In this document: positions 2,350 to 64,000 of the stretch, in pieces
How the letters are laid out: each line of letters starts with the position of its first letter
Position numbering within the stretch: position 1 is the stretch's first letter
Notes under the pieces: generated by a model
Seen by the model: only the letters and a program-made list of their open reading frames with translations
Told to the model about the DNA's origin: nothing
Database searches by the model: none
From: Squalus acanthias
Taxonomy: Eukaryota
Length of the DNA: 64,000 nt
NCBI GenBank assembly: GCA_030390025.1
Contig: CM059432.1
Location: forward strand, 42,410,001-42,474,000
Direction of reading: 5' to 3'
Program-made: the position numbers and the translations under genes

Positions 2350-5238
2350 ATCAAGTCTACTGAACTCCAATTACAAAGGGTTAGGACTAAGAGTTTCAGC
2401 CTCAGCTCTATTTTGAACCCAGGGTATATTTCCTCATTGGGAAAGTTTATTCAGTTCTTGATCAGGCAGTTAGATTACTGGCCCAAAACAACACATTTCA
2501 GGATACACGAGGAAGAAATTCAGACAATTTGAGAATTCAGCATTCTTTACACATTTATTAAACTGTTAATGCACATTACATTTGCTTAACCAGTGATGCT
2601 AATCCAGCAAACATTTTCTTTAAGAAATGTGGTTGAATTATTACAAAACTAAATATTTGATTAGCTTAATGTTTGTGCACTGGATGGCAGTGTAGTTACT
2701 TAAACAACAAATTTTAACAGCCAATAAAATGTTGTCATAGATGAGCCTTTCAGAGATAGTGAAATGTTCTTTTATTGCTAAAATACTACATTACAACAGT
2801 GACTAACTTCAAAAAGTACGACATTGGGACGTCCGGTGGTCGTGAAAGGTGCTATATAAGCGCAAGTCTTTCTTTTATTATATCATGAAGTTATTGTTAT
2901 ATGCTGTATTTCGGAGCAAATTTTCTAAGTGTAATGCAGCTAAAATCCAGTAGGTGCTGCTCATTAGTATTCCAGACACAGTTCAAAATAAAAGCACACC
3001 TTTGAGCTGTTCAGCAAGAAGACAATGGATTCAGAAAAATCTAACTACATTAATTAACCCTTTGATTGGTCTAGTCTGTTTATGCAAACACTCATGTTCA
3101 AGCACTGAAACTCACTTTGTAATGTCATGCTTGAAATTTGCTTTTATTTTCAAACTAACGTTTTTTTTAAATCATTTTGCTAAAATTTTTATTGAGCTAC
3201 ATCTGTTTCACAGATGCTTTTATTGACAGACTGCTGCACAGGAGTAGGGGAAGCAAATATACATTTGTGCTGTTGAAAGGGTGAAAGATTCCCATGTATG
3301 ATAAATGCACAGGTCAAGCAGAGTCTCTCTAAATGGAATGATTAATTTTAGCATCATTACTTCACAATAATTCATGAAAGGGACGATCAGCAAACTGTTT
3401 AGTCATGGAGGTCAACTGGAAATCAGGACTTTACTTGCTGTGGGTGTCTTTAATTTCAAGCAAAATTCTGAGAGATTAACAGCCAATAATTTACTTTTGG
3501 AAAATAATAAGCTTCTTTACCAAAACAAAAAAAATCCCAGTGTTTTAATGTTTCTTCCCCGTGCTCATTTAGGTCACTATCCTCTTCACAGACACATGTG
3601 TACGCTGCAGCATGCAGTCTTTATATGTGTTGTAAGCAGAAATGGACTTAAAAGAACAAAAGAGTAAATGAGCAGGAAGCCTGTCGCCAAGTTCTTTACA
3701 ATGTCCTTCTGTGACATGCCACTTAGCAATGCACCAGAGCAGCTTGGGTTGATACCCTTTGCTTTTCCCTCCAGCTGTTTGGAGAAACACCTCACCTCTG
3801 CGAAGAGTCTTTTGTAGTGGCCTGACTGAGATCAGGAATTCACAGTGTGGAAAAATGCAGACACAAATCCCTATTCTACCACTCTGATGCACAACCCTGA
3901 ACCAATGAACTGTACGGCCCATTCTTCTGAAAATGTCCATGTAACAGTGAAAGGTTAACTCACCAGAATTCTACTTTAAGGTCTAATTTATGTTTTTCCA
4001 CGACTCTTCTCAAAGGACTTGTCCTGTTATGTTGTCAGAAGGTAATTTCAGCCATGGCACTTACACCAACAGCTTCATCAAATTAAACACTTTGACAAGA
4101 GGGAGGCAGCATCACAATATGAGACGTAGATTCAGGATTTCCATTACTGGGTTTTAATAAGGGACCCATTAGCAATGAGAATGCTATAAACTTGGGATTC
4201 ACTTTAAAGGTAAACACAGAACATCACGAAGTAAACACTCCAAAGTGAATTGCTGTTTGCACCTACCTGGGCATGAAATAAAGCAGCTAGAGAATTATCC
4301 TGTTAGTAGTTAATTAATCTGGACTTGCTCCAAGGATTCACCCAGTAAGGAAACTCAGAGTGGAATAGGGGCATATTGTTTATTAGGTAAGTGCATGTGC
4401 TGCATGCAGCACAGTTCCTTTAACCTGTTTATTTTGCTAATGTGTTTATGTTAAAATCTAAAAAAAAGTGCATTGTGTACAGGATTTGTGGTTCATTAAC
4501 CACACGTTATAACCATCTACTGGAAAGAACTATTCATTAAAATAATCATAGCACATTGGTTGTGGTGTAACAGTTACAGATTTCTTGTTGAGGGATATAT
4601 TATTACTAGTCACTTGTCCCTCCTACACATGTGCTGTGCTTTCTTTCATTTATTGGGTTGCGTGCGGTTTAATAAAATTTGCCATGATTCCAGTCATTGT
4701 GCCTTCGACAGCATCTTATCTAATGTACTCGACCTGTTTAGTGGAGTTTGAATTAGCCAAAGGTAAGGCATGATAACCAGAATAAGCTATTTCTTTTCCA
4801 TCCTTAGTTGAGAAAAGATATTTTAAATACACCAGTTCTTGTCTATAAAACTAACTGTGAGGATGAAAAAAAAATGTTTGATTGCAAGCAGTATGTTATA
4901 GAGAAGGGGCTTTGTACACTTATTTAATGATGCGATCCTAACAATGCACATTATAATCTGAAGCTGGAGGAAGTGTACTTCCCATGGCTGCCATTTAGTG
5001 AAGCTGCTTTAGTGTTTAAGGATTATTTGACAGCCTTGTGAATGATCTATTTTTTTGCCAGTTAGCTGACAAGGGTGTTGAATAAGAATATAAATAAATG
5101 ATATAAGTCAAGGTTGCCCAGTGTGTGACTCAGCGCACTTAATAAATGCCGATCTTATGGTCTGCATTATTTATGATCATGCAGGAGGGAATTTTGCTGA
5201 GTAAACCAATTTGTACTAGTTGTAAAAGTTGCGACACA

Positions 5239-11196: not shown

Positions 11197-12232
11197 AATG
11201 TTTTTCTGTTACTGCCATGTCTGTGTTTGCAGGTCATTATAACCTCACCGTTACAACACTGAGCTCCAGTTCTGTGATTAACGGGAACTGCCATCATATT
11301 GCAAGACTGAGGTCACCATAACTTGTACATGTTAGAGAATTATTGATTTTACAAAGATAATAAAAGCAGTTACCAGCACAAGATGTGAATGGTGAACTAT
11401 TTGAATTATTAACTTTAATCCTGAATAAGTATGATTACAGTTATTTTCGCCCTCAAGCACAGTCCATTGGTGCTCCAACAGCTTCTGCTACAGAACGTGT
11501 GGACGCTGCCTACTATTTGCCAAAAAGTTAGTTATTCACAAGATAAATATGGATGAGGAAAGCCATTCAGCCCATCTTAGCTCACCCATCTTGATCACAA
11601 CAATAACGACAACTTGTATTTTCTAGCACCTTTAACATAGTAAAACATCCCAAGGCACTTCACAGGAGCATTATCAAACAAAATTTGACACCGAGCTACA
11701 TAAAGTGATATTAGGGCAGATGACCAAAAGCGTGGTCAAAGAGGTAGGTTTTATGGGGCGTCTTAAAGGAGGAAAGCGAGGTAGAGAGGAGGAAAGGTCT
11801 AGGGAGGGTCTTCCAGGCCTTAGGGTCTTTGTAGCTGAAGGCATGGCCGTCACTGGTGGAGCAATTAAAATCAGGGATGATTAAGAGGCCAGAATTGGAG
11901 GAGCGCAGATATCTCGAATGGTTGTAAGGCCATAGGAGATTACAGAGATAGGGAGGGGCAAGTCCATGGAGGGATTTAAAACAAGGATGATAATTTTAAA
12001 ATCGAGGCGTTGCTTAACTGGGAGCCAATGTGGGTCAACGAGTACAGGGTGATGGGTGAACGGAACTTGGTGCGAGTTAGGACACGGGCAGCAGAGTTTT
12101 GGATGACCTCAAGTTTACGGAGAGTAGTATGTGGGAGGCCGGCCAGGGGTGCGTTGGAATATTCAAGTCTAGAGGTAACAAAAGTGAGAAGTCGCACAAC
12201 ACCAGGTTATAGTCCAACAGTTTTATTTGAAA

Positions 12233-12272
12233 TCACAAGCTTTCGGAGCTGCTGCTCCTTCATCAGGTGAAG
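12233..12272 (-). ncRNA. Minimal type I hammerhead ribozyme (Penelope pLTR)
   Basis: Minus strand reads UUCAC CUGAUGA A GGAGC-AGCA-GCUCC GAAA GCUU GUGA: core boxes, stem II, palindromic stem III, stem I UCAC/GUGA. Confidence 0.8.
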
Positions 12273-13167
12273 TGAAGGAATACAAATCGGCAAAGCATAT
12301 ATAGACAGAGAACAATGCTTGTGCAGCGTACAATGTCAGACAACTACAGTTAATCTTTCTGACTGCCTTTTATCACACTTCGGCAGAGAAACAATCAGGT
12401 CAGTCAGGAAGGCATTATATCAAAGACATAGCAAAATACAACTAAGACAATGAGGTGGGGTCACAGGGGGTCTAATGTGTCAAATGCTGCAGTCTGTATG
12501 GAAAACCAAAAACTTTAAACTTTTAACTTTTTTTACTGGAAATCACATCTGTTAACAAGCCAACGATGACTCGAGTCTGGATGACTCTGCGTCATGTAGC
12601 GTGACATGAACCCAAGATCCCGGTTGAGGCCATCCTCATGGGTGCGGAACTTGGCTATCAGTTTCTGCTCGATGATTTTGCGTTGTTGTGTGTCTCGAAG
12701 GCCGCCTTGGAGAACGCTTACCCGAAGATCCGAGGCTGAATGTCCTTGACTGCTGAAGTGTTCCCCGACTGGGAGGTAACAATCCTGCCTGGCGATTGTT
12801 GCGCGGTGTCCGTTCATACGTTGTCGCAGTGTCTGCATGGTCTCGCCGATGTACCATGCTCTGGTGCATCCTTTCCTGCAACGTATGAGGTAGACAACGT
12901 TGGCCGAGTCACATGAGTATGTACCATGTACCTGGTGGGTGGTGTCCTCACGCGTGATGATGGTATCTGTGTTGATGATCTGGCATGTCTTGCAGAGGTT
13001 GCCGTGGCAGGGTTGTGTGGTGTCGTGGTCGCTGACTGACCTGATTGTCTCTCTGCCGAGGTGTGATAAAAGGCAGTCAGAAAGATTAACTGTAGTCGTC
13101 TGACATTGTACGCTGCACAGGCATTGTTCTCTGTCTATATATGCTTTGCCGATTTGTATTCCTTCAC

Positions 13168-13206
13168 TTCACCTGACGAAGGAGCAGCAGCTCTGAAAGC
13201 TTGTGA
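13168..13206 (+). ncRNA. Minimal type I hammerhead ribozyme (inverted pLTR copy)
   Basis: UUCAC CUGACGA A GGAGC-AGCA-GCUCU GAAA GCUU GUGA. Confidence 0.78.
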
Positions 13207-14600
13207 TTTCAAATAAAACTGTTGGACTATAACCTGGTGTTGTGCGACTTCTCACTTTTGTCCACCCCAGTCCAACACCAGCATTGCTGCATCAGAGGTA
13301 ACAAAGGCATGGATGAGGGTTTCAGCAGCAGATGAGCTGAGGCAGGGGCGGAGATGAATGATGTTATGCTGGTGGAAGTAGGCAGTCTTGGTGGTGGAGT
13401 GGCTATGTGGTCAGAAGCTCATCTCGGGGTCAAATATGACACCAAGGTTGCGAACAGTCTGGTTCAGCCTTAGTCAGTTGCCAGGGAGAGGGATGGAGTC
13501 GGTGGCTAAGGAACAGAGTTTGTGGCGGGGACCGAAGATAATGACTTCGGTCTTCCCAAGATTTAGTTGGAGGAAATTTCTGCTCATCCAGTACTGGATG
13601 TCAGACAAGCAGTTAGACAATTTAGAGTCAGTGGAGGGGTTGAGAGAAGTGGTGGTGATGTAGAGCTGGGTGTCGTCAAGGTACATGTGGAAACTGACGC
13701 TGTGTTTGCAGATGATGTTGTCCAGGGGCAGCATGTAGATGAGAAATAGGAGGGGGCCAAGGATAGATCCTTGGGGGACACCAGAGGTAATGGTACGGGA
13801 TCGGGATGAGAAGCCATTGCAGGTGATTCTCTGGCTACGACTGGATAGATAAGAATGGAACCAGGCGAGGCCAGTCGTACCCAGCTGGACGATGGTGGAA
13901 AGTCATTGGAGGAGGATGGTGTGGTCAACCGTGTCAAAGGCTGCAGACAGGTCGAGAAGGACAAGGAGGGATAGTTTACCTTTGTCACATCACAGAGGAT
14001 GTAATTTGTAACTTTGATAAGAGCTGTTTCGGTACTGTGGAAGGGGTAGAAATCTGATTGGACAGATTCAAACATGGAGTTCCGGGAAAGATGGGCATGG
14101 ATTAGGGAGGTGACAATATGTTCAAGGACTTTAGAGAGGAAAGGGAGGTTGGAGATGGGGTGGTAGTTTGCAAGGACGGAGGTTTTAAAGTTCCTTTTTT
14201 TGAGGAGAGGGGTGATGACAGCAGATTTGAAGGAGAGATAGTACCTGAGGAGTGAGGGGATAGTACCTGAGGAGTGAGAACTGTTAACAATATCAGTATT
14301 CCGACAGCACTTCTCCTACCTTCAATTTTTTAATTATTATTCATTTATGGGATGTGGGCGTCGCTGGCAAGGCCAGCATTTATTGTCCATCCCTAATTGC
14401 CCTTGAGAAGGTGGTGGTGAGCCACCTTCTTGAACCGCTGCAGTCCATGTGGTGAAGGTACTCCCACATTACTGTTAGGTAGGGAGTTCCAGGATTTTGA
14501 TACGATAGCAAAATACTGCAGATGCTGGAAATCCGAAATAACAACAGAAAACGCTGGAAAAACTCAGCAGGACAGGCAGCGTCCGTGGAGAGAGAAACAG

Positions 14601-18696: not shown

Positions 18697-20678
18697 AACA
18701 TAAGAACATAAGAAATAGGAGCAGGAGTAGGCCATTCGGCCCTTCGAGCCTGCTCCGCCATTCAATGAGATCATGGCTGATCTTCTGCCTCAACTCCATT
18801 CACCGGCCCTATCGCCATATCCCTTGATGCCCTTACTAGTCAGAAATGTATCGATTTCTGTTTTGAATATACCCAATGACTGAGCCTCCACAGCCCTCTG
18901 GGGTAGAGAATTCCAAAGATTCACCACCCTCTGTGTGAAGAAATTTCTTCTCATCTCAGTCCTGAATGGCCTACCCTTTATCCTGAGGCTGTGGCCCCTG
19001 GTTCTAGACTCCCCAGCCAAGGGAAACATTCTCCCAGCATCCACCCTATCAAGCCCTGTAATAATTTTGTATGCTTCAATGAGATCCCCTCTCATTCTTC
19101 TGAATTCAAGAGAATACAGGCCTAGTTTACTCAATCTCTTCTCATACGACAGTCCTGCCATCCCAGGAATCAATCTCGTGAACCTTCGTTGCACTCCCTC
19201 TATGGCAAGTATATCCTTCCTTAGGTAAGGAGACCAAAATTGTACACAGTACTCCAGGTGTGGTCTCACCAAGGCCCTATATAATTGGAGTAAGACTTCT
19301 TTACTCCTGTACTTAACTCCTCTTGTAATGAAGGCCAACATACCATTAGCCTTCCTAATGGCTTGCTGCACCTGCACATTCACTTTCAGTGACTCATGTA
19401 CAAGGACACCCAGGCCCCTTTGAGCATCTGCATTCCCCAATCTTTCACCATTTAGGAAATACTCTGCCTTTCTGTTTTTTCTACCAAAGTGGATAACTTC
19501 ACATTTATCCACATTATATTCCATCTGCCATGTTCTCGCCCACTCACTGAGCCTGTCGAGATCCCCTTGAAGCCACTTCACATCCTCTTCGCAACTGACA
19601 CTGCCACCTAGCTTGGTATCATCAGCAAATTTGGAAATGTTACATTTAATCCCCTCATCCAAATCATTGATATAGATTGTGAATAGCTGGGGTCCAAGCG
19701 GTACCCCACTAGTCACAGCCTGCCATCCTGAAAAAGACCCGTTTATCCCTACTCTTTGGGGGAAAAATTCAGTATCGTCCCGTTTGGGGCGCAATTATCG
19801 GCCGGGCGCAAAGATTAGTGCCTGGCGCTAATTATCGCCTCCGACTGCAAACTTGACTTTTATCACCCTTGGAGGTGATTGGAGCGCTAAATCAGACGCT
19901 ACACATCTGTCTTAAGGTGCAAAGGCCGAGGAGCAAGGCGCTATCTCAGAGCGCTGGCGAAGCTCATGTGATGTCAGTCAGCAATGGAACACAGACACAA
20001 TGACGCTGGCCAGTTCTTAAAGGGGAGGGTTGATCTTGCTTTCCATCCACATCCTGATCATTGCAGCCTTGAATCTCGGCCTGGAGAGACCTATACATCA
20101 AATCTGCTGGAAAGAACAATGGAGAGACCCAGGGAAAGAGCTCAGAGTGCAACCCCCACAGTCTCTTCTAAATCGATACAAGGAAGGGAAAATCAAAATG
20201 AACCTGCAAAGTGCTGCTCAGTGCACAAAACTCCTTCACACAGCATTGAATCTCTCCAGAAGTCTCTCTATCTCTCTCTCAGAATGCGTGGTTCAAAAAT
20301 GTCACCAACAAAAAAAGGCAGAAAACGGTCGCCTTTAAATAGCGCTCCCCCAGTCCCTTCCTGACTGCAAAACGCTCCCCTCAACCTGTCGTTGCTAATG
20401 GCAGGCGGTAAGGCAGGGGGGCGCCACTCAATATCCCCTCCGGGGCGCTACCGGGGCGTGGCGCACTCGACTGACGTCATGATCTGCCGGCGCAGGAGAT
20501 CGTGGCCGTAGTGTTTAGCGCTGCCGCAAAATGTCTAGTTAATTTCCCGAGCAGCGCAAACATCGCCGCGCATGGGCGCTAGTTGCTTTGCGCCCCATTA
20601 GCGCCCTCTTAAGGCGCTAACGGGAGGCGCAACCAACTGAATTTTTCCCTCTTTGTTTTCTGTCTGTTAACCAATTAA
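18697..20678 (-). mobile_element. CR1-type LINE 3' part, interrupted by a MITE at 19758-20651
   Basis: ORF 18790-19794 carries RT motifs and the CR1 C-terminus; (AACATAAG)n tail; CR1 sequence resumes after 20651. Confidence 0.93.
19758..20651 (-). mobile_element. Non-autonomous Harbinger element, family Y (diverged copy)
   Basis: TIR G(G/A)GGGAAAAATTCAGT; TTT TSD inside CR1; 894 bp; homologous to the reverse complement of 47172-48065. Confidence 0.9.
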
Positions 20679-22115: not shown

Positions 22116-22729
22116 TCATATTAACAGACAATCAGAGATTTCCCAAGATATACACCTTATGAGCGCTGCTCCCCGTGGGGAGCATTGGATCATGGACTGT
22201 GTTACCGTGAGTTTGGAGGTGTTAACACCTGCACCCCCAGGAGCAGAGTGTCAGGTAAGTGTCAGGAGAGAGAAAAGAGGTAGTTTGGCTGTCTGCTTGA
22301 AGAGACCAATGGCACCTGCTACAGTGTATGGGACGGAAAATACTAAGATCAGAGCAGAATGGCCAGGATAGCAACAATATAGGAGTTTAGCAGCAGAGTA
22401 ATGACAGATGAGGTCGGAGATCGACAGAAGCATAGTACAATGAATCAGGGAGCAGGAGGCTGAATGGCAGAACCCAAGGAGAGGAGGAGGCAGGAAATGA
22501 GATGGGGGTACAAAACAGGATCGAGATGATGGACAGAGGCAGTGGACCTCAGTTCCAGTTAGAACAACTGCAGCCCATAACATGAGATGCAAAAACCTAT
22601 TCAGTGCTGTGATTTGAATGGTTACAAGAATTGTTTTCATTACTAATATACCAAAAGAACCAGAATTGTAAAACAAGTGGTGAACTGCCACCTTGCTGAG
22701 TTAGTGCTCTGATTTTTCAAAGTGCTATT

Positions 22730-23491
22730 GGGCCAGAAATTCGGCTCTTGTCGGGTGAGTACGCACTGTGTACTCACCCGTAAGGCCACCTGAAGTGCCG
22801 GTTTTCTGCATGCACTGCGCATGCGCTGGAAACCGGAACTTCCGTTCCCCTGAAGGAAGGGGTTCAGAAGTCGAACGCGTGCGCGGGAGAGGCAGCGCGC
22901 ACGCAGCGAACTTCGTTTTTTTTTCCAGGTTTCTCCGTGAGGATAAGTATGGAGAAGCTGCACATTTAAAAAGGAGGCGCAAGGCCTGCTTTTAACAAGG
23001 TAAGTGGTTAATTAAGTACAATTTAAAACATTTTTCAACAGGTTTATCTTTTTTACATACTTTAAAGAAAGGTAAGTTTATTTTTAGCACTGTTAAAAAG
23101 AGTAATTAATTTTTTCAAAAATTTAAATTTTTGTTTGAAGTAGTTAATTTATGTAATTTATAGTTAGTTTAAAAATGTGATGTTTTTTTTATTTATTTGA
23201 AGTTTTAGTGTGGTTTTGGGGCCGATCTCTATTCATAGATTTGACAGGTCTTCCTGTCAAATCTATGAATGAAAATTCCCTGCTACGATTGGCTCTCCAT
23301 GGCCCATGTGATCCCAGGGGACGCTTCGAACTAACTGCGTCCCTGGGATACGCAAGCACTGCGCGCCGGCAGCTGCAGGAGGCCCAGGACCCGAATTCCT
23401 CGTGGGCCCGAAGCACAACGGCAGGCGCGGTAGGTAAGTACGCGCGCGATCCTTGCACCCGCAGGAAGCCGGAGAGCCGAATTTCTGGCCC
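22730..23491 (+). mobile_element. Non-autonomous DNA transposon, family X copy A (PIF/Harbinger-like)
   Basis: Perfect 19-bp TIR GGGCCAGAAATTCGGCTCT; ATT TSD; homologous copies at 37610, 49276 and 58049; strand is relative. Confidence 0.9.
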
Positions 23492-23594
23492 ATTGTATAA
23501 ATATAAAAATTAGAGCCCAGAAGAAGCATATTCTGCTCATTGTGCCTGTACCAGTGCTAGCTCTTCCATTGGAGCTGCTTATGTGAAGTGTTAA

Positions 23595-37609: not shown

Positions 37610-38374
37610 GGCCCTGAAATTCACCTCTCCGGCTTGCCGCGGGGGTAAGGATCGCGCGCGCACTTACCTACCGCGCCTGCCGTTGACCTCTGGGCCCACG
37701 GGAACTTCAGCTCCTGGTCCTGCGCCAAGAGCCGGCGCGCAGTGTGTGCGTGTCCCAGGGGCGTAGTTAGTGCGATGCGTCCCCTGGGATCACGTGGGCC
37801 ATGGAGAGCCAATGGCAGCAGACCATCTTTCATTCATAGATTTGACAGGAAGACCTGTCAAATCTATGAATTGAAATCGGCCCCAAAAGAACAGCTAAAC
37901 TTAAAATAAATTTTTAAAAAACCCTCACATTTATAAAATAACTATAAGTTAAATAAATTAACTACTTTAAACAAAAATTTACATTTTTGAAAAAATTAAA
38001 ATACTTTTTAACAGTGCTAAAAATAAACTTACCTTTCTTTAAAGTATCTAAAAAAGATAAACCTGTTGAAATTTTTTTTTAATTATAATTAATTAACCAC
38101 TTACCTTGTTGAAAACGGGTCCTGCGCCTGCTTTTTAAAAGCGCAGGTTCTTCAATACTTACCCTCCCGTAGAAACCTGAAAAAAAACCTAAGTTTGCTG
38201 CGTGCGCGCAGCCTCTACCGCGCACGTGGTTCACCTCTGAACCGCTCCCTTCACCAGACCGGAAGTTCCGGTTTCCCGCGCATGCGCAGTGCATGCAGGA
38301 AACCGGCACTTCAGGAGGCCTTACGGGTGAGTACATAGTGCGTACTCACCCGGCAAGGGCCGAATTTTTGGATC
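37610..38374 (-). mobile_element. Non-autonomous DNA transposon, family X copy B
   Basis: Reverse-complement homolog of 22730-23491; AAT TSD. Confidence 0.9.
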
Positions 38375-51394: not shown

Positions 51395-53298
51395 AGATGT
51401 TGTGGTAAATGGCTGTTTTTCAGACTGGAGGATGGTAGTCAGTGGTGTTCCCCAAGGGTCAGTGCTGGGGCCACTGCTTTTTTTGATATATATAAATGAC
51501 CTGGATATTGGAATACAGAATAGAATTTCTAAATTTGCCGATGACACCAAACTTGGGGGTGCGGCAAACAGTGAGGATGCTACCAATCGACTGCAGCAGG
51601 ACATAGAAAGGCTAGCAGAATGGGTAGACAAGTGGCAGATGGAATTTAATGCAGAGAAGTGTGAGGTGATGCATTTTGGCAGAAGGAACAGGGAGAGACA
51701 ATATACACTTAGGGGTAAAAATTCAGTTGGTTGCGCCTCCCGTTAGCGCCTTAAGAGGGCGCTAATGGGGCGCAAAGCCGCTAACGCCCGGGCGCAGCGA
51801 TGTTTGCGCCGCTCGGGAACTTAACTTGAGATTGTGCGGCGGCGCTAAACTTTACCGCTGCGACCACCTGCGCGCGCAGATTGTGACGTCATTCCATGGT
51901 GCAACGCCCTTGTGGCGCCCCGGAGCGGAAATTGAGTGGCGCCCCCTGCCTTACCGCCTGGCGCATCCAACGACCAGAAGACTGGAACGCTATCAATCGC
52001 TGTGGGGCTGGGGGGGGGGCGCTATTTAAAGGGGGCCTCTTCCTGTCTTTTATTGTTGGTGGCATTTTTGAACTACGCATTCTGAGAGAGAGAGGGAGAG
52101 ACTTCTGGAGAGATTCAACGTTGTGTGAAGGAGTTTTGGGTACTGAGCAGCACTTTGCAGGTTCATTTTGATTTGCCATTCCTTGTATCGATTTAGCAGA
52201 GACTGTGGGAGCTGCACTCTGAGCTCTTTGCCTGGTACTCTCCATTGTTCTTTCCAGCACATTTGATGTGCAAGTCTCTCCAGGCCGAGATTCAAGGCTG
52301 CAATGAACAGGATGTGGATGGAAAGCAAGATTAACCATCCCCTTTAAGAACTGGCCCGTGCCATTGTGTGTGTGTTCCATTGCTGACTGACATTACATGA
52401 GCTTCGCCAGCGCTCTGAGTTAGCGCCTGATTTAGCGCTCCACTCACCTCCCGGGGCGGTAAAAGTGAAGTTTCCAGTCAGTGCCGATAATTAGCGCCAG
52501 GCGCTAATATTTGCGTCCAGACGATATTTGCGCCCCAAATGGGGCGCGACCTAATTTCTACTCCTTAATGGCATAGTTTTAAAAAGTGTGCAGGGACAGA
52601 GGGACCTGGGAGTTAATGCGTATAGGTCCCTGAAGGTGGCAGGACATATTGAGAGAGTGGTTAGCAAAGCATATGGGATCTTGGGCTTCATAAATAGAGG
52701 TATTGAGTACAAAAGTAGAGAAGTTATGCTGAACCTTTATAAAGCGCTGGTTAGGCCACAACTGGAGTATTGCATCCAGTTCTGGTCATCACACTTTAGG
52801 AAGGATGTGAAGGCCCTTGAGAGGGTGCAGAGGAGATTTATCAGAATGGTTCTGGGGATGGGGGATCTTAGATAGAAGGACAGGTTGGAGAAGCTGGATT
52901 TGTTTTCATTAGAGCAAAGGAGGTTGAGGGGTGATTTGATAGAGGTGTACAAGATTATGACCGGTTAGGCTAGACGGGGAAAGGCTATTCACACTAGTTG
53001 ATGGTACAAGGACTAGGGGTCACAGATTTAAGATTTTGGGCAAGAGATACAGGGGGGACGTGAGGAAAAACTTTTTTACGCAGCAGGTGGTGATGACCTG
53101 GAATTCACTGCCGACGGAAGTGGTGGAAGCGGAGACACTCAATGTTTACAAGGGGAGACTGGATAGGCACTTGAGGGAAATAAACTTGCAGGGTTACGGG
53201 GATAGAGCGTGGGAATGGGATGGACTGGATTGCTCTACAGAGAGCCGGAATGGACTCGATGGGTCGAATGGCCTCCTTCTGTGCCGTTATGACTCTAT
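51395..53298 (+). mobile_element. CR1 LINE 3' part, interrupted by a family Y MITE
   Basis: ORFs 51375-51746, 52588-52875 and 53036-53422 give successive CR1 ORF2 motifs; GACTCTAT tail. Confidence 0.92.
51712..52564 (+). mobile_element. Non-autonomous Harbinger element, family Y
   Basis: TTA TSD inside CR1; almost identical to 47172-48065 apart from a 42-bp deletion. Confidence 0.93.
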
Positions 53299-57551: not shown

Positions 57552-58012
57552 TGTCAGCTGTGGCTCAGTTGATAGCACACTTGCCTCTGAGTCAGAAGGT
57601 TGTGGGTTCATAGTCCCACTCCAGGGACTTGAGCACATAAAGCTAGGCTAACACTCCAGTGCAGTGCTGAGGGAGTACTGCACTGTCGGAGGTGTTGTAT
57701 TTCGGATGAGACATTAAACCGAGGCCCCTGTCTGCTCTCTCAGGTGGATGTAAAAGATCCCTATTTCGAAGAAGAGCAGGGGAGTTATCCCTGGTGTCCT
57801 GGTCAATATTTATCCCTCAACCAACATAACAGAAACAGATTATCTGGTCATTATCACATTGCTGTTTGTGGGAGCTTGCTGTGTGTAAATTGGCTGCTGT
57901 GTTTCCCACATTACAACAGTGACTCCACTTCAAAAAAGTACTTCATTGGCTGTAAAGCGCTTTGAGATGTCCGGTGGTCGTGAAAGGTGCTATATAAATG
58001 CAATTCTTTCTT
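57552..58012 (+). mobile_element. Near full-length Deu-domain tRNA-derived SINE (SacSINE1-like)
   Basis: A-box TGGCTCAGTTG, B-box-like GGTTCA(T)AGTCC, Deu core, L2-like tail GCTATATAAATGCAA. Confidence 0.9.
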
Positions 58013-58014
58013 TT

Positions 58015-59118
58015 ATGAGTTTTGGATTCTCCCACAAGTGGAAACATTGGCCCAGAAATTGATCTCGCTCTGTTCCCGCGGGGGTAAGCCTTCCCCGCGA
58101 TCTCTCACCTCGCTTGTGCTTTTTCAGATCCAGCTCGCACGAACTTGATGTTCCAGACATCAGCCGGGCAATGCTTGCGTATCCCACCGGCGTAGTGAAT
58201 TCGTGCGAGCTGTGGGATCACATGACTCAGTTAGAGCCAATGGCAGCACACCATCTTCCATTCATAAGTTTCACAGCACGGCTGTGAAATCTATGAATCT
58301 TACACCCCCCCAAAATAACAGCTAAACCTCAATTAAATTAAAAAAAAAACCATCACATTAATAAAATAAGTATAGTTAAATAAATTAACCATTTTAAATA
58401 AAAAATTAAATTTTTGAAAAAAATCTTTTAAAAAGTTATAAAAATAAACTTACCTGTCTTTAAAGTCTCTAAAAAAGATATACCTGTAAAAAAAAATTCA
58501 AAAAAATACTTAATTCACTACTTACCTTGTTAAAAGTGGGTCTTACTCCTCCTTTTTACATTTCTAAAATCTTCAGTACTTACCTGCGCGTCCAAAGCAT
58601 GAAGTGCACAGCGTGCGCGCAGCCTGTAGCGCGCACGCGATGCAACGAGGAACCGCCCCCTTTTCAAAAGAGCAATTGCCGGTTTTCAGCGCATGTGCAG
58701 GGCATGCAGAAAACCGGCAATTGCAGAGGGAATACGCGAGAATACGCAGTGCGTACTCTCGCGCACCGGGATGAATTTTTGGGCCATTCTCTCCATATCT
58801 ACCCTGTCCAACCCATTCATAATTTTAAAGACCTCTATCAGGTTACCTCTAAGTCTTCTCTTTTCTAAAGAATTCACCCCAACCTGTTCAATCTTTCCCA
58901 ATAGCTTTATCCTCTCAGTTCTGGTACCATCCTTGTGAATCTTTTTTGCACTTTTTCAGTGCTTCTGTGTCCTTTTTATAGTAAGGAGACCAGAACTCTG
59001 CACAGTACTCTTAAGTGCGGCCTGACCAGTTCCTATACAAGTTTAACATAACTTCACTACTTTTGAATTCTATACCCCCTAGAAATAAATCCCAGTGCTT
59101 TGTTAGCATTTTTAACAG
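58015..59118 (-). mobile_element. CR1 LINE fragment interrupted by family X copy D
   Basis: SLEKRRLRGNLIEVFKIMNGLDRVD peptide; sequence is continuous across the insertion. Confidence 0.85.
58049..58785 (-). mobile_element. Non-autonomous DNA transposon, family X copy D (subfamily 2)
   Basis: TIR GGCCCA(G/A)AAATT; ATT TSD, supported by the uninterrupted CR1 homolog near 5575-5600. Confidence 0.92.
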
Positions 59119-63109: not shown

Positions 63110-63155
63110 TGAACAGGAGACCGGGTTTTGGCTTAATATCTCATAAAAAGACAAC

Positions 63156-63895
63156 GGGGTAAAAATTCACTTGGTTGCGCCTCCCGTTAGCGCCTTAAGA
63201 GGGCGCTAATGGGGCGTTAAGCCGCTAACGCCCGGGCGCAGCGCTGTTTGCGCCGCTCGAGAACTTAACTTGAGATTGTGCGGCGGCGCTAAAACTTACC
63301 GCTGCGACCACCTGCGCGCGCAGATTGTGACGTCATTCCATGGTGCAACGCCCTTGGGGCGCCCCGGAGCGGAAATTGAGTGGCGCCCCCTGCCTTACTG
63401 CCTGCCGCTTCCAACGACCGGAAGACTGGAACGTTATCAATCGGTGTGGGGCTGGGGGGGGCGCTATTTAAAGGGGGCCTCTTCCTGTCTTTTTCTGTGG
63501 TCGACATTTATGCACCACTCGTTCTGAGAGAGAGAGAGAGATTCGGAGAGAGAGAGAGAGAGACTTCTACATTGACTCAACGCTTTGTGAGGTAGTTTTG
63601 CCTATTCATCCTAATTTTGTTGCTACTTTAGTTGCTGTACCTCATTACTTTTCTGGCAAAGAGAATATGGGGGCTGCAATGATTGGGGGCGTCGTCCTGC
63701 TCCAGCTGAATCGGAGGATACAGAGACGCAGACAGAGAGTGGCAATGATGGCCAGACGGAGGAGGGCCATCAGGCGCATGCACAGGAGAGCTTACCCTCC
63801 CAGGGTATATCGTGAACAGCTCTCCTACATCCATATGTCCGAGGAGCTGTGTTTGCGGAGGCTGCGATTCAGCAAGGAGGTGGTCACTGAGCTTC
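63156..63895 (+). mobile_element. 5' end of a coding Harbinger element related to family Y
   Basis: Same TIR and first ~400 bp as family Y, followed by a transposase N-terminus. Confidence 0.85.
63667..63892 (+). pseudogene. Harbinger (HARBI1-like) transposase N-terminus, truncated
   Basis: MGAAM...RRRR..YPPRVYREQLSYIHMSEELCLRRLRFSKEVVTEL; similarity ends near 63892. Confidence 0.78.
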
Positions 63896-64000
63896 TAGGG
63901 CCCCTGCCATTGCTACAAACACTAATCAACCCAGCACGCAACCCCTGAGCCGGCCAAGGCACCAATAATTCCAACCACCAACCATGTATATTTTGAATAC

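Follow-up and report, generated by a model that had tools for sequence, protein, structure and literature searches.

The closest described systems to the element reported here, designated X, are Tourist-like MITEs such as mPing of rice and the short Harbinger-Snek derivatives of sea kraits, which, in the portion of PMC8437027 that covers them, share with X TIRs starting with GG, a 3-bp duplication and the lack of a coding frame, as well as ends in common with elements encoding a transposase plus a Myb protein, a very high copy number and many intronic insertions. X differs from them in its AWT instead of TWA target, in its length of about 750 bp and in carrying the ends of current autonomous elements on an older core. 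It further differs in a stack of consensus splice donors, a feature that goes unmentioned in that portion of the source (PMC8437027). Two further groups are described in PMC4482050: Pangu has an ANT target, as X does, but its second frame has no known domain, unlike that of the relatives of X, whereas NuwaI and NuwaII resemble these relatives in their two-gene layout with a Myb/SANT protein and their length of about 4.5 kb, but differ in the target (CWG or C-TNA-G). Intronic ERV and LTR elements are comparable to X as mobile cassettes of promoter plus splice signals, and PMC1794541 presents the sense-strand splice signals of ERVs as harmful in introns, where sense copies are disfavoured; X, however, is a cut-and-paste DNA element without an RNA step, and the orientation lean of its copies is not significant. 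As for the host lineage, a review reports no Harbingers in elephant shark and recommends that other cartilaginous fish be checked (PMC9179366). A search of the literature outside subscription journals, Repbase and Dfam listed no publication dealing with splice donors of this Harbinger family. X can also be set beside vertebrate recursive splice sites and U1 telescripting, as these are commonly understood, for its AG/GT junctions and its strong U1-complementary words. At a recursive splice site a consensus donor is rebuilt directly behind the acceptor; in X the junctions rebuild no consensus donor, and sense enrichment is lacking.

The 64,000-nucleotide stretch of Squalus acanthias DNA analysed here (the window) contains four copies of X, two on the plus and two on the minus strand (Table 1). 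X is a non-autonomous PIF/Harbinger element of about 750 bp, as follows from its TIRs, its 3-bp target duplications and the ends that it has in common with L065, an element encoding a transposase and a Myb protein. TIRs were present in 30 A-like and 30 C-like loci. The modal overlap at empty sites was 3 bases, found in 16 of the 19 copies having such a site, which ruled out a Spy-like model without duplication, and the target consensus was the palindromic AWT. Exact target duplications flanked 38 of 76 copies, the remainder differing mostly at the middle base. No transposase or Myb coding remnant was matched by tblastn inside copies A to D. At the gathering score, Rfam gave no match in the window, and Pfam searches with 120 of the 196 frames in its less repetitive part returned only two RT matches and two sub-threshold matches. 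Searches of the species' own genome (3.7 Gb) yielded 6,485 candidates for copy A and 3,139 for copy C, with best identities of 95-96% and 98%, respectively. The 28-mer around donor 3 had 33,996 exact matches in the genome, and the donor 3 17-mer had 44,891, compared to 6 for its reversed control. Given the shared ends and the near-identical copies (98%), autonomous relatives with the same ends would supply the transposase and Myb protein that mobilise X in trans.

Table 1. Copies of X in the window and sequence features of copy A (positions in the window; a dot marks features without strand).
Feature	Position	Strand	Remarks
Copy A of element X, 762 bp	22730..23491	+	Ends match autonomous L065/L062
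Copy B, A/B subfamily	37610..38374	-	Four donors
Copy C, young C/D subfamily	49276..50019	+	Three donors; target duplication ATT/ATT
Copy D, C/D subfamily	58049..58785	-	Three donors; target duplication AAT/AAT; empty site overlap 3 bp
Left target duplication ATT, copy A	22727..22729	+	Right duplication ATT at 23492-23494; for other copies, paralogous empty sites show a 3-bp overlap
Left TIR, copy A	22730..22748	+	Perfect partner at 23473-23491 (19 nt); 16-nt terminal repeat identical in L065
Subterminal palindrome, copy A	22752..22780	.	Also in autonomous left ends; candidate site for the Myb protein
Promoter words, NRF1-like and ETS-like, copy A	22817..22838	+	Also present in autonomous left ends
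First acceptor-like tract with CAG end, copy A	22918..22928	+	A/B type; missing from C and D
Donor 1, copy A	22940..22948	+	Mutated here (AT for GT at 22943); intact in most family copies
Donor 2, AAG/GTAAGT, copy A	22997..23005	+	Aligned to a GTAAG-like inverted-repeat end in the one-donor sister group
Acceptor-like site, copy A	23031..23041	+	Separated by 99 nt from donor 1 and by 42 nt from donor 2
Predicted 30-nt micro-exon, copy A	23042..23071	+	Same layout in parent L062, with a 10-nt micro-exon
Donor 3 and AT-rich tail, copy A	23069..23086	+	One of the best-kept stretches between subfamilies
Internal palindrome, perfect, 18-bp, copy A	23231..23270	.	Kept in C and D with altered arms
CCAAT-like and E-box-like words, copy A	23288..23310	.	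Inside a GC-rich internal block
Donor 4, copy A	23431..23439	+	Points outward from the right end; TAG/GTAAGT at the same place in L062

A previous sequence-only reading of this DNA had reported three to four GGTAAGT words on a single strand of each copy, and all of its coordinates proved right: the GT lies at 23000, 23072 and 23434 in copy A, at 49478, 49536 and 49608 in copy C, at 38162, 38104, 38032 and 37667 in copy B (minus strand), and at 58583, 58525 and 58453 in copy D (minus strand). Among 20,000 dinucleotide shuffles per copy, a count at least as high as that observed, on either strand, was reached by none for A, B and D and by one for C, and GGTAAGT/AGGTAAG was, A/T runs aside, the sole 7-mer present at least three times in each of A, B and C. 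The motifs are therefore real; as the four copies share descent (pairwise identities of 86% for A-B, 88% for C-D and 73% for A-C), they represent one non-random event and not four. Acceptor-like AG ends were found at 22928 and 23041 in A, 49577 in C and 58484 in D, and the AG/GT junctions read CAG/GTTTAT, CAG/GTATAT or CAG/GTTTCT; AG/G(T) is the preferred context of an acceptor. The pyrimidine-tract CAG/GT junctions described earlier do exist, although the upstream one is absent from C and D, which have an 11-nt gap at this place, and the GTAAGT donor does lie exactly 30 nt downstream of a junction in both A (23042-23071) and C (49578-49607). Of the motifs, whose core was said to persist in both diverged subfamilies, donor 4 is restricted to the A/B subfamily. 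A gap of 42 nt does separate donor 2 from the acceptor, and had been noted as shorter than a typical vertebrate intron; as donor 1 and the same acceptor would delimit an intron of 99-100 nt, this puzzle disappears. The promoter-like words of X resemble NRF1, ETS, CCAAT and E-box motifs. In the internal palindrome at 23231-23270 and its homologues in B, C and D, both arms have changed jointly between subfamilies. A Myb-binding palindrome was reportedly described by Sinzelle in 2008.

A genome search with PF13359 detected 63,885 DDE_Tnp_4 candidates, 150 of which were scored, many of them having open frames of 385-392 aa with identical scores; the Harbinger load of this genome is thus very large, and some families look recently active. 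Twenty transposase loci of 10 kb each were examined as possible parents of X. Among them, L065 is a 4.67-kb element with an A-type TIR, a DDE_Tnp_4 frame (PF13359, E 7.6e-43) and an opposed Myb_DNA-bind_5 exon (PF13873, E 1.3e-13). Bases 1-258 of copy A are 79-82% identical to L065 and L062, and its right end 88-93%. In these alignments donor 1 corresponds to CGG/GTAAGT of L062 (position 214) and L065, and donor 4 to TAG/GTAAGT, 57 bases from the right end of L062. Within 800 nt, each of the eight autonomous left ends examined carries four to six GT(A/G)AG words on the strand of the transposase. In both L062 and L065 the transposase leader contains a GTAAGT donor placed ten bases behind a pyrimidine-tract acceptor, and an acceptor-like tract lies between this module and the ATG; the leader of the Myb gene, on the opposite strand, likewise presents GTAAGT and then an acceptor ahead of its ATG. 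In L065 (around 3660-3890), about 130 nt of this transposase leader are tandemly duplicated, which doubles the module of acceptor, micro-exon and donor.

Neither the 20 ten-kb transposase loci nor the surroundings of 26 other transposase remnants contained the core of X (about 260-660, comprising donors 2 and 3 as well as the 30-nt micro-exon), and looking for TIRs near 21 remnants did not reveal it either. The Myb intron of L061 gave weak, AT-rich alignments with the core (E 7e-5), which were not relied on. A simple internal deletion of one sampled parent was rejected, given that the core is missing from the sampled autonomous elements and the ends match different subfamilies: the left end of C is 92% identical to L063/L064, that of D 90% to L061, and the right end of A 93% to L065, while the left ends of C and A share only 73-75%. 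In the comparison with L061-L067, L073 and L076, the ends of each X subfamily matched different autonomous subfamilies and the core matched none. From this we infer that X is an old core whose ends have been repeatedly renewed. Homology to parental donors is established for donors 1 and 4 only, so that these two, and the layout as a whole, map to an autonomous parent, and donors 2 and 3 map to none of those sampled. An autonomous Harbinger was found inserted in a C/D-type copy of X, near its position 220, at locus L078 (2934-8147). The window also holds a second Harbinger family, of the L071 type (47158-48068, 51707-52567, 19758-20652 and 63142-63948), with non-autonomous copies and, at the window end, a truncated transposase, its ends being devoid of a GTAAG stack.

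The explanation that we favour, and regard as moderately probable, is that X has lost both genes and that its donors are a spliced 5' leader inherited from a Harbinger gene, not a host device. Its end-sharing autonomous relatives would provide the transposase and Myb protein for its movement, and its left end would act as a promoter. In a transcribed copy, donor 1 would be spliced to the acceptor 99-100 nt downstream and leave a micro-exon of 30 nt with donor 3 at its end. Donors 2 and 3 would be joined to the next acceptor, belonging to the transposase exon in the parent and to a host exon in a genic copy; donor 2 would need an acceptor beyond the one 42 nt away. After insertion the donors would decay without consistent protection, and sense copies in introns might, to a slight extent, be removed as cryptic splice signals. 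The layout of X (donor 1, intron, micro-exon, donor 3) matches the leader design of L062 and L065, which supports the leader origin. The term inherited holds for two donors only, because the core with donors 2 and 3 is absent from the sampled loci; donors 2 and 3 would come from a leader as well. The donor array is real, and the element that carries it is of an ordinary kind; as a leader relic, X would be a commonplace source of cryptic promoters and splice donors, though a very large one. The suggestion of a mobile promoter-plus-donor cassette stands insofar as X is a non-autonomous transposon with the anatomy of promoter plus donor at its left end, and is not supported as regards a module selected by the host.

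If the donors served the host, they should be better conserved than flanking positions, as the sequence-only reading anticipated, but single copies gave inconsistent results. Among the best matches, substitutions in donor columns amounted to 11 versus 8.9 expected among 28 A copies (query and one duplicate dropped), and to 0 versus 2.0 expected among 29 C copies (query dropped). Genome-wide, the +2T of donor 3 was broken in 274 copies versus 138 for one control T, beside 33,996 intact copies, and that of donor 2 in 21 versus 55 for one control T in the same GTA context, beside 12,673 intact copies. Donor T loss relative to the control T was therefore 2x for donor 3 and 0.4x for donor 2, with one control T per donor and a site-to-site scatter that covers both results. 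A control G located five bases before donor 3 (1,063 variants) was discarded as a whole, as a single allele made up 90 of the first 100 listed, probably derived from sister subfamilies; transversions counted among the first 100 were about 0.31% at this G versus about 0.55% at donor +1. Inserted copies thus decay without consistent donor protection, which makes a host-selected splicing device unlikely.

Comparison between subfamilies gave a different picture. A sister group of about 760 bp with other TIRs, encountered in intronic regions C9 and C16 and about equal to X in abundance, shares the core of X including donor 3, donors 1 and 2 being missing. In a comparison of 17 clusters comprising 36 long copies, donor 3 ranked 25th among 754 nine-base windows, with several non-splice blocks as well kept; within the three-donor group, donor 3 ranked 19th, donor 2 30th and donor 1 263rd. 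Donor 3 is AAG or CAG/GTAAGT in 22 of 22 three-donor copies, its position -3 being only A or C, and reads AAGGTAAGT in 12 of the 14 sister-group copies. Donor 2 and the acceptor conform to the consensus in the three-donor group and not in the sister group. There is constraint between subfamilies without consistent protection in single copies, and donors 2 and 3 are kept better than plain drift would suggest. What is noteworthy is that donor 3, together with donor 2 and the acceptor in one lineage, is very well kept in a core that has no parent among the sampled elements.

This constraint is the basis of the best-surviving alternative, which we regard as fairly unlikely: selection on the element lineage, in which the promoter-proximal 5' splice sites of source copies would recruit U1 and avoid early termination, so that these copies are transcribed, open and mobilised more often while ordinary copies decay. 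Such selection would explain a donor 3 that is nearly invariant across groups with different TIRs, a consensus donor 2 plus acceptor in the three-donor group only, and a core that persists while the ends track different autonomous subfamilies. It is also compatible with the block that 5' splice sites impose on Restrictor-mediated attenuation, according to PMC12211998, and with the influence of internal sequence on mPing mobility, according to PMC9921582. However, the transcription and splicing of X are themselves predictions from its sequence, non-splice blocks are kept as well as donor 3, a DNA transposon moves without RNA, and an unsampled or extinct parent may hold the core, 150 of 63,885 transposase candidates having been scored. 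If the donors were under lineage-level selection, co-transcriptional binding of U1 would be linked to the mobility of a DNA transposon. A bolder version, unlikely in our opinion, is that an old non-autonomous lineage swaps in the ends of active families while keeping and improving its stack of U1 sites for mobility. X would then be a DNA transposon that encodes nothing and is selected for its RNA-processing signals, and the genome would contain tens of thousands of ready-made first exons.

GTAAG could also be a DNA word, either a site for the Myb protein or a host factor or a by-product of palindromes, and its likeness to a donor accidental, which we judge quite improbable. The element is palindrome-rich, the position of donor 2 in the sister group aligns with the end of an inverted repeat with CTTAC and GTAAG arms, and close to the right ends of B, C, D and several parents a CTTAC is present on the other strand. 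On the other hand, an accidental likeness fits poorly with three full nine-base donor consensus words that all lie on one strand and have a pyrimidine-tract acceptor between them, with variation at position -3 of donor 3 limited in 22 copies to the A or C that the splice consensus permits, and with the GTAAGT and acceptor that precede the ATG in the Myb gene leader as well.

The orientation of intronic copies was analysed in 1.3 Mb from six genes defined by Sushi or spectrin exon matches, with same-strand exons confirmed along four of the six. Three-donor-type matches of at least 150 nt in introns were 5 sense and 14 antisense (p = 0.064), or 4 and 14 after dropping one 246-bp fragment (p = 0.031), with nine of the 14 antisense copies in a single gene; in a 300-kb replication both copies found (2/2) were sense. 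Sister-group matches, some of which are halves of split copies, were 10 sense and 10 antisense (Fisher p = 0.19 between groups). Of two controls in the first megabase, a CR1 was unskewed (61:46) and a SINE was skewed (20:41). This SINE, represented in the window at 57592-58013, has its 20:41 orientation inside genes with p = 0.01 (1.0 Mb of introns, L141-L240). Strong sense enrichment in introns is thus excluded, and there is no more than a hint that sense-oriented copies are purged in the manner described for ERVs (PMC1794541). Poly(A) signals numbered 0-1 on the donor strand and 2-6 on the opposite strand, but shuffled sequences gave the same (P 0.22-0.46), so that base composition explains this asymmetry and an axis of U1 and poly(A) signals was rejected. 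Contigs from four runs presumed to be RNA span copy A, and the four joints listed lie off the donors, these contigs being short and possibly derived from DNA. A host-beneficial mobile module, loading U1 against premature polyadenylation or serving recursive splicing of long introns as first proposed, is therefore very improbable, since perfect, co-oriented donors in tens of thousands of copies and a donor 2 +2T broken less often than one control are opposed by the 5:14 sense to antisense ratio, a donor 3 +2T broken twice as often as its control, AG/GT junctions that rebuild no consensus donor and a poly(A)-signal asymmetry due to base composition.

Whatever the role of the donors, the target duplications of X deviate from identity in a regular manner. 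Among 76 copies with both ends, taken from loci L001-L140, the gene regions and the window, the middle base was mismatched in 31, compared to 12 and 10 for the two outer positions (Fisher p = 2e-5), and in the 98%-identical C set the corresponding numbers were 10, 2 and 2 of 31. AAT/ATT pairs outnumbered ATT/AAT pairs (14 versus 4). For three such mismatched copies the empty site fits both flanks, which disfavours recombination between distant copies. In the excision model given in PMC4561436, staggered cuts are made in the old duplication. The middle-base mismatch may accordingly consist of bases carried over from the previous site and joined into the new target; it makes the cutting and rejoining of DNA by PIF/Harbinger elements accessible to testing on genomic data. 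Elsewhere in the window, a remnant recognised by eye as Penelope-like (12178-13294, frame 12533-13168) is flanked by inverted repeats of 230 bp with 97% identity.
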